From: Rhodothermales bacterium
GTDB taxonomy: Bacteria > Bacteroidota > Rhodothermia > Rhodothermales > UBA10348
DNA length: 64,000 bases
Reading direction: 5' to 3'
Assembly (NCBI GenBank): GCA_028284865.1
Contig: JANQQV010000024.1
Location: 140,218 to 204,217, forward strand
Under the pieces are notes generated by a model. The model did not search any database. It was not told the DNA's origin and was given only the letters and a program-made list of their open reading frames with translations. The position numbers were made by a program, and so were the translations under genes. Each line of letters begins with the position of its first letter. Within the stretch, counting starts at the first letter, position 1. Of this stretch, positions 11,274-14,790 are shown one piece after another.

Positions 11274-11555
11274 GGCAGCACCCCCTGGTGGATTCGGGCC
11301 TTAGTTAAGTTGACCGTTTTGGTAGATCGTTTGGTTGATCGGTGTGTTGATCGCGGGCGAGGTTATCGTCGATGAGATCGGCGGAAGACCCCTGGTCCGG
11401 ATGCGCGAGAGTCTGGTGACACCCATCAACAGCGTAGCAGCCGGTTGGAGCAAAGGCAATGGGAAAAACCCTACAAGGACTGTGGTTGCGGGTTACGCAG
11501 GCCAAGCGGAAGGGTCAATGGGATACCAGAACACCAGAGTCCTTTGTATTCATCC

Positions 11556-12206
11556 ATGCATACCGCCCCTGGAATTACTCCGGTTGAACCGGGACATCAC
11601 GTTGGTTCGGCCAATCATGGTGATCCGGACTCCCTCGAGTGGAATCATGTTCAGTTGGATCCTGCAGCCGTGTATGAGGCCATCCTAGCGGTATTGAGAC
11701 CGCAAGTATCAAGGGAGGCTCTGCTGGATCACCATGCGGTCCCTGACCTAGCGTCAAGCGTATTCATGGCCGTCTGGTCAAAACGGGATGGTCTTCAACA
11801 GCCTTATCGCTATGCGCGTCGCGCAGCCAGAAACGGTTTGATGCGGTTTCTGAGTCAGGAACGGCGGCGCTTGGCTCTTCAACGCGATTGGGCAGATGCA
11901 AGGATGGATTCTGCTGGTGGGATGAATCCTGCTTCTGCCCTCACGTCAGAGGGTAGTTCGCAGGACTCACGGGATGGACTTGGCGCCCGACAACTGGCAT
12001 TTGTTGAGTCCCTGTTGGCCCTTCAGGATGGGCGGACGCGCCTGATTGTTCATCTTCGGTATCGAGGAGGGCATTCGTGGATGGAAATCGCTGAAAGGGT
12101 GGGAATGAGTGCTCCCAGTGCACGCATGCGATTGAGGCGGTTCATGGCACAAACGCGGCGGGCATGGGACGCTCGAGGAGAACAGGCGAGGACGGACTGG
12201 GCGTGA
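11556..12206 (+). CDS. Divergent ECF-like sigma-70 family protein (start uncertain; ORF opens at 11445)
   Basis: Region-2-like DLASSVFMAVW...YARRAARNGLMRFLSQERRR and a region-4 HTH (SWMEIAERVGMSAPSARMRLRRF). The N-terminus is unlike known sigmas, so the start choice is a guess. Confidence 0.55.
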   Translation: MHTAPGITPVEPGHHVGSANHGDPDSLEWNHVQLDPAAVYEAILAVLRPQVSREALLDHHAVPDLASSVFMAVWSKRDGLQQPYRYARRAARNGLMRFLSQERRRLALQRDWADARMDSAGGMNPASALTSEGSSQDSRDGLGARQLAFVESLLALQDGRTRLIVHLRYRGGHSWMEIAERVGMSAPSARMRLRRFMAQTRRAWDARGEQARTDWA

Positions 12207-12230: not shown

Positions 12231-12914
12231 GTGAATCAGAGACCGCGCTCTTTCGTAGCAACGCTCACCCTCATTGAACCCGACCACACGAACAACCCCG
12301 TGTTTTACGATACCCCGTTTACACTCTTTCTCCTGCTCATCAATATCCTGGTGAGTGGCTACGCGCTATTCCAGGATCAGTCGCTGATCGGCAAGCTGGC
12401 CTTCAAGCCCCGGGAAATCCTCAAGAACGGCGAATGGTACCGGTTGATAACAGGCGGATTCGTACATGGAAGCATGGGCCACCTGGCGTTCAACATGATC
12501 ACGCTGTTCTTCTTCGGACCCGTACTCGAAGTTCAGATCGGCTCTATCGGATTCTTGATCGTCTACTTCGGAGCGGAGATCGCAGCCCACGCATTCACGC
12601 TCTGGCTACACAAGGACACGCCGGGTTATGCTGCCGTCGGAGCTTCTGGAGCCATCTCTGGGCTCGTGTTTTCATTCTGCCTTTTCCACCCCTTTCAAAG
12701 CATCTATCTGTTTTTCGCCATCGGAATTCCCGCTTGGTTGTTCGCGGCGGGCTTCGTGATCTTCTCTGTGATGGCCATGCGCAAGCGCGAGTCAGCGGCC
12801 ATGGGTGGTATTGCACATGAAGCGCATCTTGGGGGGGCGATTGGTGGCTTGCTGCTCACTCTGATTATCGAGCCGGACGCGCTGGGGATATTCCTGAATC
12901 AGATAGGGTTCTAG
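12231..12914 (+). CDS. Rhomboid family intramembrane serine protease
   Basis: 227 aa polytopic protein. WYRLITGGFVHGS, catalytic GASGAISG (GxSG) and downstream AHLGGAIGG (His) motifs. GTG start 25 nt after the sigma-like gene. Confidence 0.85.
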   Translation: MNQRPRSFVATLTLIEPDHTNNPVFYDTPFTLFLLLINILVSGYALFQDQSLIGKLAFKPREILKNGEWYRLITGGFVHGSMGHLAFNMITLFFFGPVLEVQIGSIGFLIVYFGAEIAAHAFTLWLHKDTPGYAAVGASGAISGLVFSFCLFHPFQSIYLFFAIGIPAWLFAAGFVIFSVMAMRKRESAAMGGIAHEAHLGGAIGGLLLTLIIEPDALGIFLNQIGF

Positions 12915-13011
12915 TCTAAAACCGTTATTGCAGTGACTGACTGGGAATCGATTCCAGTACACGATTAACGAAGACTTAATCACGGTCGAGAATACTTCCG
13001 TTATTGCACGG

Positions 13012-13043
13012 TTGCATCACCGCGTCACAGTCCCCTATATTTG
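13012..13043 (+). promoter_or_regulatory. Candidate Bacteroidota-type promoter (TTG ... TAnnTTTG)
   Basis: TTG at 13012-13014, then 21 nt, then TATATTTG at 13036-13043, matching the TAnnTTTG -7 element. About 100 nt upstream of a terminator. Confidence 0.35.
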
Positions 13044-13048
13044 CAGTA

Positions 13049-13146
13049 CTCATGCCGCCTGGGATTGCGTCCTCGTGTGAGGACACTCAGTCGCGCAGTG
13101 ACTATGGGCACCAAAAAGCTCGGTTCGTAAGGGCCGGGCTTTTTGC
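13049..13146 (+). ncRNA. Candidate ~100-nt small RNA (alternatively the rhomboid 3' UTR)
   Basis: Bounded by the candidate promoter and a terminator. Contains a perfect 6-bp hairpin GTCCTC-GTGT-GAGGAC (13069-13084). No ORF. Confidence 0.3.
13113..13144. terminator. Bidirectional-type intrinsic terminator
   Basis: A5 arm (13113-13117), stem GCTCGG (13118-13123) / CCGGGC (13134-13139) with one G-U pair, 10-nt loop, T5 arm (13140-13144). Confidence 0.65.
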
Positions 13147-13167
13147 GCATTCAAGCGTCACGTGGTT

Positions 13168-13197
13168 ATTCACAGACATGGAATACCCTGTGTGAAT
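13168..13197. promoter_or_regulatory. Inverted repeat ATTCACA-N16-TGTGAAT upstream of the large-RNA promoter
   Basis: Perfect 7-bp arms at 13168-13174 and 13191-13197, centred about 80 nt upstream of the predicted start at ~13263. Possible regulator site. Confidence 0.25.
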
Positions 13198-13227
13198 TTC
13201 TTGTGGAAGGAAGGCTGTGGCGAATTG

Positions 13228-13256
13228 TTGACTCACCTCGGATGCCAGACTATAAT
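13228..13256 (+). promoter_or_regulatory. Near-consensus sigma-70-type promoter
   Basis: TTGACT (13228-13233), exactly 17 nt spacer, TATAAT (13251-13256). Predicted start near A13263/G13264. Best canonical promoter match I saw in the window. Confidence 0.55.
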
Positions 13257-13262
13257 GGTCCC

Positions 13263-14007
13263 AGTGCCTGACGGCACAGTTCCTTGACGCGACTGAGTCT
13301 CTAGGCTGCATGAGGCAAGCCCAACCCCCCGAAAGGGAGGAAGCAGGGTCCCCGTGTCATCAGTGATCGTTCCGGTTTCGAGCAAGCCAGAGCAGGAGAT
13401 GGACACGAGCACAGTGTAGGCCGGGAGGATGTTCGAGAGGTTGGTTCGCAAGAGCCATCTTCGACGGCAGATGAATCCCGACTGGAAGCTGAGCAGAATG
13501 CGCGATGGTCGACCGGCCCCTGGCCGGTAGGATGTCGAGCAGGAGGGAATGGAGAGCGAACCGATTGGAAGCGTCCCGGCGCGACCGATCAACACGAACT
13601 CCTCGGCAGAAACGGAGGATCTCCAACAGTTCGGCTTCGGCCGGCAGGAGAAACTGCGAGATGCCACACTGCGGAGCCCATGAATCCCGAAAGCTTCTTC
13701 GGAAGTGGACTGGAGGAAGGCAATGCCCGCCGGAAGTGTCCCGCCCGCAAGGGTTGAGGCAGTCCCGACGGTTCACCTGTAGGGTTGTCGTCTTTATCGT
13801 GTGCCCATACGATGGAGACAACACGAGAAGTCGTTCGCGGCGGATCGTGTTATCCGAAGCCCCGTCAAACGGGCGACGGAATCCACTGAGACTCGAACCT
13901 CCCGCCAACTGGTGAGGAGAAAGCGCCTCGGCGTCGAGCCCCCACCAGGGGAGGTTCTCGTGTCAGGAGCAGAAAGAAAGCTATCCAACAGGATGGCTTT
14001 TTTTTGG
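13263..14007 (+). ncRNA. Unclassified large structured RNA candidate (~745 nt)
   Basis: Lies between the consensus promoter and a hairpin+T8 terminator. At least ten local hairpins, six capped by GNRA or UUCG tetraloops, plus a 9-bp long-range helix and internal repeats. Only Arg/Ser/Pro-rich junk ORFs. No RNase P, tmRNA or SRP signatures by eye. Confidence 0.6.
13980..14007 (+). terminator. Intrinsic terminator of the large RNA (may also serve the convergent HAD gene)
   Basis: 7-bp stem GCTATCC (13980-13986) / GGATGGC (13991-13997, one G-U), loop AACA, then T8 (13998-14005). The minus-strand reading is followed by TTTCTTTCT. Confidence 0.8.
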
Positions 14008-14076
14008 ACCTACGTTTTTCCGCGACAGGTCTCTGGTGAAGCAGCAGCGGCTTCCGTCATTTTGCAGCGGCTTGGA

Positions 14077-14790
14077 TCAGCCTGCCGCCAGGGAGTCGAC
14101 GTGGCTGATCAAGGTGGACCAATCCGTAAATGAGAGCACGTCGGGATGGTCGTACGTGGATTCCGAATACCAGGCAACCTTCCAACCTGCTCCGATACCG
14201 CCCCGCACATCGGAAGAAAGCGAGTCTCCGACGTACAGGATCTGCTCAGCGGGTACGCCAGCACGACGGGATGATTCCTCGAACAGCATCGGATCGGGCT
14301 TCAGAACGCCGACTTCCTCGCTGATGACGACCGTGTGGGACCTGTCCCGAATGGATGGGAATTGCTCCAGCTTCGAGCGCTGAATCTCCACGAATCCGTT
14401 CGTGAGAATGCCTACCGGGAGTCGCTCTGCGACTAACTCGAATGCTTCGAATGCGCCCTCGATGGCTTTCCAATGCCCGGAATATGTATCCAGATAGCGA
14501 TGGGCCAGTTCTTCGTCCGCTTCTGTTGACAACCCCAGGCCCGAAAGCAGCTGCGAAAAGCGGCCGACCTTGGCTTGCCGTTTCGAGAATTCACCGGACG
14601 CGTACTTCCTCCAAACGACTGGATTGATCTGGCGATACAGCTGGTGAACCTGCTCAAACGAGTGCCCCCCGAACGGCGCGTCCGCGCTGGCGTGCATGTC
14701 ACGCAGTGCCTGGAGCTCGGCGTGAGAGTGGTCCAGAAGTGTGTCGTCCAGATCGAAATAGACAAAGCGGATCGGGGAGCTGCTTGCCAT
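14077..14790 (-). CDS. HAD-superfamily hydrolase (phosphatase-like)
   Basis: 237 aa, motif I FDLDDTLLD, motif III/IV region YVGDSLSSDVRGG. Its ATG overlaps the stop of the upstream gene at 14790. Confidence 0.85.
   Translation of the reverse strand: MASSSPIRFVYFDLDDTLLDHSHAELQALRDMHASADAPFGGHSFEQVHQLYRQINPVVWRKYASGEFSKRQAKVGRFSQLLSGLGLSTEADEELAHRYLDTYSGHWKAIEGAFEAFELVAERLPVGILTNGFVEIQRSKLEQFPSIRDRSHTVVISEEVGVLKPDPMLFEESSRRAGVPAEQILYVGDSLSSDVRGGIGAGWKVAWYSESTYDHPDVLSFTDWSTLISHVDSLAAG

Follow-up and report, generated by a model that had tools for sequence, protein, structure and literature searches.

The window analysed here is the 64,000-nt stretch of contig JANQQV010000024.1 from a Rhodothermales bacterium, an assignment with which the flanking proteins agree. 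A rhomboid gene and a convergent HAD hydrolase gene enclose a gap in this window, and an earlier reading made from the letters alone (the sequence-only reading) had proposed that the + strand of the gap gives rise to an orphan, independently transcribed, large structured RNA of no known class. Our analysis bears out such an RNA, which has no Rfam match, a conserved promoter and terminator, strong covariation and no conserved open reading frame (ORF). It also adds a second unit, a small RNA encoded ~120 nt upstream on the same strand, three segments of which are predicted to pair with the large RNA. The coordinates of all features are collected in Table 1.

The large RNA and its family

The region 13263-14005 of the + strand is a predicted gene for a noncoding RNA, forming its own transcription unit with a promoter and a terminator. 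The TTGACT-17-TATAAT promoter scores 11/12 and is the sole such site in 12500-14500; the whole window holds just two promoter-like sites that score at least 10/12. Its pattern, TTGACw-17-TAtAaT, is kept family-wide, including in a divergent clade, in Rhodocaloribacter litoris and in Longibacter. At the other end, a T-run is present in all full-length members, and the terminator stem belongs to the consensus structure of 15 homologues. The sequence agrees with the sequence-only reading on the position of the promoter and on a terminator with eight T residues that closes the unit. On the + strand, 13263-14007 folds with a minimum free energy of -325.6 kcal/mol, compared with -283.3 ± 7.7 kcal/mol for dinucleotide shuffles (z = -5.5), none of the 20 shuffles being as good. 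The - strand of the same interval gives z = -2.0, so the excess folding is strand-specific. High expression of the large RNA we only infer, from the quality of its promoter and from ten transcript-like metagenome contigs described below.

Homologues were collected along two routes. A search that started from the rhomboid protein yielded 12 genome loci, in six of which the whole intergenic block aligns (nhmmer E-values 1e-94 to 1e-111), with a partial alignment in two Longibacter-like loci. Metagenome loci were ascertained by exact match to a 20-nt pattern, GTTCCTTGAYGCGACTGAGT, from the 5' end of the large RNA. This pattern matches 61 metagenome contigs, of which at least two are chance or chimeric and the rest represent ~50 distinct 5' ends; among viral contigs it has no match. 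The RNA pair is present in three complete genomes, CP076718.1 (R. litoris), CP020382.1 (Rhodothermaceae bacterium RA) and CP030158.1, and R. litoris and strain RA are cultured.

A consensus structure was computed using RNAalifold on 15 full-length homologues of 743-793 nt with a mean column identity of 56%. It comprises 123 pairs in 22 helices, and 93.8% of its cells are standard pairs, compared with 41-48% when the 3' partners are slid. Compensatory changes occur at 54 of the 123 pairs, compared with 18-30 in the slid controls, and the observed values were reached in 0 of 500 shuffles. Many of the pairs are G-U, and hence valid on the + strand alone. The sequence-only reading had looked to relatives with covarying base pairs as its check, and the homologue searches and the alignment supplied them, with ~50 loci and 54 covarying pairs. 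Nine hairpins that it listed, the 9-bp long-range helix 13895-903:13949-57 and the terminator are all found in the consensus, most of them with compensatory changes. Its hairpins at 13433-64, capped by GCAA, and at 13861-73 (CCCGT-CAA-ACGGG) stood in part: they lie outside the RNAalifold consensus, but covary by eye in the alignment. The GNRA and UUCG tetraloops that it took as the mark of a folded RNA are likewise strongly enriched, with 71 occurrences of C(UUCG)G and 45 of C(GCAA)G across 25 members, compared with 3-5 expected.

Two closing helices, B and A, lying on either side of a 3' hairpin domain, are predicted to join the ends of the large RNA. From 5' to 3', the order of elements is the P1 hairpin, one strand of helix B (nt 17-30), the six-base junction GACUGA, one strand of helix A (GUCUC), a GCAUGAG hairpin, a long body, the GUGCCCAUA hairpin with its UGCCCAU loop, the second strand of helix A, the 3' hairpin domain, the second strand of helix B and the terminator. 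The window carries every core element, and the same core order is found in members of 548-1037 nt. At the 3' core, the succession GAGAC, hairpin, UCGYGUC was found in 27 members. In the 548-nt member (L041), the 3' domain hairpin has shrunk to 22 nt and helix A shows a compensatory C:G to U:A change (GUCUUU:AAAGAC); this sequence folds independently into the same architecture (z = -6.6). The 5' strand of helix B is fixed by the search pattern, and its 3' strand shows only transitions that preserve G-U or Watson-Crick pairs. Percentages from an automated extraction of helices A and B are upper bounds, as the procedure chooses the best windows and assigns several members wrongly.

Around this fixed core, the family ranges in length from ~548 to ~1,230 nt through gain and loss of body hairpins. 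The position of P1, the closing helices, the 3' domain hairpin and the contact sites for the small RNA are found in every member. The body between the ends is made of many tetraloop-capped hairpins and measures ~200 to ~900 nt among relatives; it is U-poor and enriched solely for the C(UUCG)G and C(GCAA)G tetraloops. A repeated protein-binding motif in the body was considered and rejected, as the apparent AUGAAUCCCGA repeats of the window did not generalise and the tetraloops alone were enriched across 25 members. In the divergent clade (L056, L033, L031, L068, L069 and L054), P1 is replaced by two or three UUCG-capped hairpins, adding ~60 nt, and the promoter and the remaining core are retained.

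A small RNA and its predicted pairing with the large RNA

The alignment contains a second conserved unit, which the sequence-only reading overlooked. That reading had called the large RNA an orphan and treated the remainder of the gap as empty; both points have to be given up, as the large RNA has ~50 homologues and a dedicated small-RNA partner at ~13047-13144, and the remainder of the gap also holds the promoter of the small RNA and conserved regulatory boxes. In nearly every locus with enough upstream DNA, the small RNA lies 125-430 nt upstream of the large RNA. Its terminator, a GC-rich stem followed by a U-run, is present in 33 of 35 distinct small-RNA sequences, and the other two have the stem with a 3-T run only. 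The promoter elements TTG and TAnnTT(TG) are kept in 38 distinct loci, and just two matches to TTG..TAnnTTTG occur in the window. We take the arrangement TTG-21-TATATTTG to be a Bacteroidota -33/-7 promoter type.

Three segments of the small RNA, S1, S2 and S3, are predicted to pair with the most conserved parts of the large RNA, and each of the three intermolecular helices (IH1-IH3) covaries. S1 is complementary to large-RNA nt 39-52 (CUAGGCU-GCAUGAG; IH1), S2 to nt 26-35, the junction strand between helices B and A (IH2), and S3 to the apical loop of the central hairpin, near nt 540 (IH3). The pairing was tested on a gapless 28-locus alignment of five blocks containing 38 proposed intermolecular pairs. 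These are 86% paired, compared with 28-38% when slid, and hold 26 compensatory cells, compared with 12.1 ± 2.6 in shuffles, 0 of 500 of which reach 26. The core pairs are formed in 27-28 of the 28 loci. As isolated duplexes in the window, IH1, IH2 and IH3 have energies of -25.1, -21.7 and -15.9 kcal/mol, respectively, and exact complements of S2 and S3 were not found in the window outside the RNA pair. A whole-molecule duplexfold of the small RNA against the large RNA was discarded as meaningless, since it ignores intramolecular structure.

The seven core pairs of IH1 form in at least 27 of the 28 loci, and two positions show compensatory changes. A G:C to A:U change occurs in L026, L036 and L008, where the duplex extends to a perfect 10-14 bp, and a separate G:C to A:U change occurs in L049. 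The nine pairs of IH2 are paired in all 28 loci. In R. litoris, CGCGAUGGAG in the large RNA is matched by CUCCGUCGCG in the small RNA, a compensatory U:A to G:C change, and this is an independent test because the genome was found via the protein rather than the 20-nt pattern. For IH3, seven pairs are paired in at least 27 of the 28 loci, with a G:C to A:U change in three loci, including L026 and L036, and covariation of the flanks in L023, L069 and L049. A three-way covariation, involving the 5' strand of the large RNA, its 3' strand and the small RNA, is found in L036 and L026.

Ten gene-less metagenome contigs of 1.07-1.7 kb (L017, L018, L034, L038, L048, L050, L055, L059, L060 and L075) bear on whether the two units are transcribed separately. 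The first base of each lies 0-7 nt ahead of the 20-nt motif and 9-16 nt downstream of the predicted large-RNA start; the small RNA is missing from all ten, and eight end inside the 3' module of the large RNA. Nine of them hold a ~1.1-1.2-kb version of the large RNA, and L017 an apparently shorter one of ~0.8 kb. These contigs, listed at JGI as Ga0182070_1201576, Ga0075484_1003880, Ga0123370_1072464, Ga0210319_1004447, Ga0123366_1074030, Ga0316586_1014822, Ga0316586_1016917, Ga0210327_159254, Ga0182069_1213379 and Ga0066625_1019918, look like assembled transcripts. The spacer between the units varies from ~120 to 330 nt among loci, including a ~200-nt insertion in L003, and both promoters and both terminators are conserved despite this variation. 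The contigs and these conserved signals indirectly support two separate transcripts, which would bind each other in the cell. It is improbable that there is instead one long transcript, with the small RNA as the 5' part of a ~960-nt RNA or as the 3' untranslated region (UTR) of a rhomboid mRNA that reads through, and with helices that would then be intramolecular. That arrangement would suit two units on the same strand merely ~120 nt apart, with no terminator between the rhomboid gene and the small RNA, and covariation reads alike for pairing in cis and in trans. It is opposed by the terminator that follows the small RNA in nearly all sequences, by the conserved -35 and -10 elements at fixed 17-nt spacing before the large RNA, by the variable spacer, and by transcript-like contigs that begin at the 5' end of the large RNA.

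When free, the small RNA can also pair S1 (CUCAU) with S3 (AUGGG), and a C:G to U:A change shows covariation of this pair. The result is a complementary set of four, made up of S1, S3, nt 48-52 of the large RNA and the central loop, within which partners could be exchanged. The segment UAUGGGC-A-CCA of the small RNA was considered as a tRNA-like or RNase P guide-like end and rejected, as ACCA is not conserved and is replaced elsewhere by GCA, UCA, ACA or GCC. The Logan assembly of the same organism (SRR20820731) splits into two contigs that overlap only at 13086-13115, inside the small RNA, possibly reflecting a coverage change or strain variation.

Table 1 Positions of the two RNAs, their parts and the associated elements in the window
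Feature	Position	Strand	Remarks
Large structured RNA	13263-14005	+	~743 nt; fold z -5.5, consensus structure, homologues
Large-RNA promoter	13228-13256	+	TTGACT 13228-33, 17-nt spacer, TATAAT 13251-56
Intrinsic terminator of large RNA	13979-14005	+	Stem ~13979-13997, then T8 13998-14005; helix 22 of consensus
P1 hairpin GUGCC-UGAC-GGCAC	13264-13277	+	5' end; consensus helix 1
Helix B, 5' strand (end-closing)	13279-13292	+	Pairs with 13958-13970; helix 2, 97% paired
Junction strand CGCGACUGAG between helices B and A	13288-13297	+	S2 target (IH2)
Helix A, 5' strand GAGUCUC (end-closing)	13295-13301	+	Pairs with 13888-13894; helix 3
CUAGGCU-GCAUGAG	13301-13314	+	S1 target (IH1); alternative local hairpin 13304-13321
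Hairpin	13325-40	+	5/5 pairs covary
Hairpin	13512-28	+	5/5 pairs covary
Hairpin	13632-43	+	4/5 pairs covary
Hairpin	13694-705	+	3/4 pairs covary
Hairpin	13744-53	+	3/4 pairs covary
Most conserved internal hairpin, 13 bp	13784-13822	+	Helix 16; apical GUGCCCAUA 13801-09 is the S3 target (IH3)
Hairpin	13830-41	+	In consensus
3' core	13888-13970	+	Helix A 3' strand 13888-94; hairpin GAACCUCCC...GGGAGGUUC 13895-13957; helix B 3' strand 13958-70; helices 18-21
Small partner RNA, ~98 nt	~13047-13144	+	5' end predicted, ±5 nt; own promoter and terminator
Small-RNA promoter	13012-13043	+	TTG 13012-14, 21 nt, TATATTTG 13036-43
Segment S1 CUCAUGC-C-GCCUGG	13049-62	+	
Variable hairpin of small RNA	13069-84	+	Covarying
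Segment S2 CUCAGUCGCG	13086-95	+	
Segment S3 UAUGGGCAC	13103-11	+	
Small-RNA terminator	13113-44	+	Strong; covarying stem
CCGTTATTG box 1	12922-12930	+	Directly after rhomboid stop codon
CCGTTATTG box 2	12998-13006	+	Just 5' of small-RNA promoter
DnaA-box-like TTATTCACA	13166-13174	+	Perfect match to consensus TTATNCACA; ~55 nt upstream of large-RNA -35
Conserved block TGTGAATTTCTTGTGGAAG	13191-13209	+	Upstream of large-RNA promoter; nearly invariant in close homologues

Each RNA is preceded by conserved elements of its own. The two direct CCGTTATTG boxes are the sole exact copies in the 64 kb, and the pair is kept 54-87 bp apart in ~50 related loci; they are probably binding sites for a regulator of the small RNA. 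Upstream of the large RNA, TTATTCACA is the sole perfect DnaA-box match in the window. A perfect DnaA box stands at the same place in 24 of 41 distinct loci (e.g. L029, L031, L040, L047 and L056), most of the other loci having one-mismatch DnaA boxes phased 11-12 bp apart. Distant homologues carry TGTGnAT repeats related to TGTGAATTTCTTGTGGAAG. DnaA or another factor may control the large RNA via the boxes at 13166-13211. In Rhodothermus profundi and a Rhodocaloribacter metagenome-assembled genome (MAG), parA/parB lie a few kb from the GNAT/HAD genes (L076 23-1891, L080 568-2521), which hints at a neighbourhood near the origin in some genomes.

These DnaA-box-like repeats in the spacer, taken with parA/parB near HAD/GNAT in the two related genomes, could suggest that the conserved block is a DNA element, such as an origin-like or DnaA-box-rich regulatory region, rather than a pair of RNA genes. 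We give this reading hardly any credence: the boxes take up only ~60 nt of the spacer, and compensatory changes, G-U pairs valid on one strand and tetraloop caps would be left unexplained at the DNA level. A replication origin itself was ruled out, as the GC skew shows no sign switch in the window.

Coding potential, known RNA classes and gene neighbourhood

Mechanical ORFs are present in the gap on both strands, for example one of 136 aa on the + strand and one of 182 aa on the - strand (13360-13908). In CP030158.1, the strand opposite the homologous RNA bears an annotated 251-aa gene for which no Pfam hit is recorded (L079 7909-8664). Such frames are what one would cite for a protein or small peptide encoded on either strand, with the RNA structure incidental, a reading that we consider highly improbable. 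The ORFs from the gap of the window match no Pfam family, and ORF positions and lengths are not conserved among homologues. An AUG at nt 48 is conserved, but the ORF that starts from it ranges from 2 to 196 codons, some members having a stop after just two. When distant members are translated, just the nucleotide-invariant stretch is common to them, and the alignment gap runs (155, 113 and 88) show no multiple-of-three bias. The long empty - frames have a compositional explanation, because the + strand contains 17% T and the - strand is accordingly poor in A, a base that every stop codon contains. The 251-aa gene and the 182-aa ORF of the window are thus probably artefacts of the A-poor - strand. 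The statement of the sequence-only reading that the gap has no credible ORF therefore holds in the sense that the mechanical ORFs come with neither a Pfam family nor conservation.

Scans against Rfam 15 at the gathering score detected no family in the window or in 11 diverse homologues of 550-1230 nt. At E ≤ 10, no family was recognised in 12900-14100, and all scans together returned only three chance hits, one of them reporting the small-RNA terminator as 'Thr_leader'. The covariance model for OLE found no match in the window (at gathering score or E ≤ 10) or in the 11 homologues, and those for GOLLD and ROOL none in the window or the same homologues. In 12800-14200, ARAGORN predicted no tRNA or tmRNA. 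The bacterial RNase P models (RNaseP_bact_a/b) gave no match even at E ≤ 10, and the universal core of the large RNA lacks a GGAAAGUCC-type motif. The exclusion of RNase P, tmRNA and SRP by the sequence-only reading is thereby confirmed using covariance models and ARAGORN and extended to GOLLD, ROOL, OLE and raiA, the families that it had left as possible; the Rfam scan that it proposed gave no match to a known family. No similarity to phage or plasmid records was found. A description of this RNA was not found in the full-text literature, a search outside which most subscription papers lie.

Several more specific identities were considered and rejected. One- or two-piece tmRNA is contradicted by the lack of a tRNA-like domain in ARAGORN and Rfam and of a conserved tag ORF, and by an ACCA after S3 that is not conserved. 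Group I and group II introns were set aside for want of a covariance match, an intron-encoded protein and an interrupted host gene. IscB/TnpB omega RNA (HEARO) and transposon guides have no Rfam match here, and the neighbours are rhomboid, HAD and GNAT genes, with no nuclease or transposase. A type I toxin-antitoxin system would call for a toxin ORF, and none is conserved in the long RNA; pairing of a small RNA near the 5' end of a long RNA, a trait of such systems, is seen in IH1 and IH2 as a mechanistic resemblance only. A titration RNA of the CsrB/RsmZ type was discarded because the enriched k-mers in 25 members are the UUCG and GCAA tetraloops, with no repeated GGA-like motif. A link to mobile elements found no match in viral contigs, phage or plasmid records. 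A very divergent or expanded form of a known class (RNase P, tmRNA, SRP, 6S, introns, OLE, GOLLD, ROOL or omega RNA) that the models had missed is very unlikely. Large insertions can break covariance-model matches, and the Rfam scans covered the window and 11 homologues only; yet the scans at both thresholds and ARAGORN were negative, the universal core lacks the known signature motifs of these classes, and the context contains no transposase, reverse transcriptase or phage.

Throughout the family, the rhomboid gene is followed by the RNAs, a convergent HAD hydrolase gene and a GNAT-like gene, in that order, with an inserted gene sometimes setting the HAD gene apart. Wherever a contig reaches far enough upstream, the end of the rhomboid gene lies 344-620 nt ahead of the 20-nt motif. 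In Rhodothermus profundi, neither a rhomboid gene nor RNA hallmarks were found beside HAD/GNAT, a result that applies to that region only, the rhomboid orthologue not having been located. Upstream of the rhomboid gene in the window, the ORF 11445-12206 (+) gives weak, below-cut-off matches to sigma-70 region 4 and a helix-turn-helix domain. It is not conserved there: a GATase-like gene takes its place upstream of rhomboid in R. litoris, strain RA and Salinibacter.

Interpretation and relation to known RNAs

Our preferred reading, which we rate at slightly better than even, is that the locus encodes a new bipartite structured RNA whose two parts act as one joint particle with a functional hub. 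The two RNAs would assemble into a heterodimeric particle, the small RNA inserting between the end-closing helices through IH2 and replacing or extending the 5' hairpin through IH1. IH3 would tie the apical loop of the central hairpin to the 5'/3' junction, giving a multi-helix hub built by both RNAs that may be the functional centre. The long variable body would serve as a peripheral scaffold, and the separate, differently built promoters would let the cell set the ratio of the two RNAs. The joint hub is favoured because the contact sequences are the most invariant ones in both RNAs, across loci whose rhomboid proteins are 46-58% identical, a constraint stronger than pairing needs. It is also favoured because the closing helices, the position of P1, the 3' hairpin and the contacts are common to all size classes. 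As to biochemical activity, an RNA-protein scaffold or a ribozyme-like machine would be a guess. A doubtful elaboration of the joint particle is a bipartite RNA machine, a heterodimeric ribozyme or an RNA-only or RNA-protein assembly, with its hub formed by the ~98-nt and 0.55-1.2-kb RNAs and its production tied to replication or the cell cycle via the DnaA-box-like array.

Several observations weigh against a joint particle. The search pattern fixed large-RNA nt 17-36 in the metagenome set, so that changes in IH2 and helix B are mainly one-sided, and the compensatory change in IH2 comes from one genome. Part of the covariation stems from single clades and represents few events. Formation of IH1 competes with that of a local hairpin in the large RNA, and S1 can pair with S3 in the free small RNA; a regulated switch would account for these two facts no less well than a permanent subunit. 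The syntenic site lacks the block in a Salinibacter MAG, whose rhomboid and HAD stop codons adjoin (L082 4133-4134), and in Salisaeta longa, where the next gene follows rhomboid directly (L083 4124-4134); the block is hence not essential. It is therefore a discrete, vertically inherited, dispensable module. The neighbouring genes, encoding a rhomboid protease, a HAD hydrolase and a GNAT-like protein, suggest no specific protein partner or chemistry.

A possible though clearly less probable account is that the pair consists of a regulator and its target. Either the small RNA would act as an antisense switch, opening up the large RNA at its 5' hairpin and junction and thereby inactivating, activating or destabilising it, or the large RNA would be a sponge that keeps the small one from mRNA targets. 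Promoters of different architecture, each with separate conserved upstream boxes, suggest independent control. IH1 overlaps the local hairpin, whose loop GCAUGA would be a toehold, and the three-way covariation in L036 and L026 fits such an exchange; S3 can mask S1 in the free small RNA, and the block is dispensable in some lineages. For a sponge, however, binding sites would suffice, and at least 20 covarying helices maintained across order-level divergence would not be required. The large RNA makes use of all three conserved single-stranded segments of the small RNA, and the window has no other exact complement. The paired sequences have also hardly changed, whereas the members of an antisense pair usually drift in concert.

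Comparison with known systems supports rating the pair as a new RNA class, as judged against Rfam 15 and the searched literature, with the co-evolving small-RNA partner as its distinctive trait. The large RNA resembles OLE, GOLLD, ROOL and raiA in its 0.55-1.2-kb size, many covarying tetraloop-capped helices, own promoter and terminator, restriction to a lineage, noncoding nature and lack of an assigned function. It differs from them in having no sequence or structure match, in occurring in Rhodothermales rather than Firmicutes or Actinobacteria, and in its unusually variable body length. To our knowledge, none of the four has a dedicated, separately transcribed small-RNA partner. GOLLD and ROOL are frequently found in the neighbourhood of prophages and tRNAs; the present RNAs have no phage or tRNA neighbourhood and a fixed chromosomal synteny. 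OLE adjoins a membrane-protein gene, just as a rhomboid gene always precedes the RNAs here, and the strict rhomboid linkage that recalls OLE and its membrane partner is only a lead.

Another parallel is offered by two-piece RNAs such as two-piece tmRNA, tracrRNA:crRNA, 5.8S:28S rRNA and U4:U6, in which separate RNAs are joined through several intermolecular helices that are conserved and covary. With two-piece tmRNA, the present pair also shares the position of the small piece, just upstream of the large one on the same strand. Unlike those RNAs, the present pair has no conserved tRNA-like end, tag ORF or CCA and no CRISPR/cas association, and each RNA apparently has its own promoter instead of being cut from one precursor. 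As in ColE1 RNA I/RNA II and hok/sok, an RNA of ~100 nt contacts several sites of a long folded RNA with paired 5' and 3' ends, and IH1 can nucleate at a hairpin loop and then extend through strand displacement. In contrast to those systems, the two RNAs here come from the same strand and share three short complementary blocks rather than a cis-antisense overlap, there is no plasmid context or toxin ORF, and the large RNA is far larger, with structure conserved throughout. The position of the small RNA directly after the rhomboid stop, where its terminator is probably also the only one of that gene, recalls 3'-UTR-derived small RNAs, and the small RNA could be released from the rhomboid mRNA; it differs from these in its own conserved promoter-like elements and in a conserved partner that is a noncoding RNA rather than an mRNA.

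Large, intricate bacterial RNAs that have no known job are rare, and each of them, OLE, GOLLD, ROOL and raiA being the main examples, has opened new RNA biology. The covariation support for the present RNAs is comparable to that for these classes. For annotation, the analysis provides a correction, in that at least one GenBank genome has a probably spurious protein gene over this RNA. The presence of the pair in cultured strains with complete genomes makes the system directly testable, and the loci of the Salinibacter MAG and Salisaeta longa are natural knock-outs of the two-RNA module.

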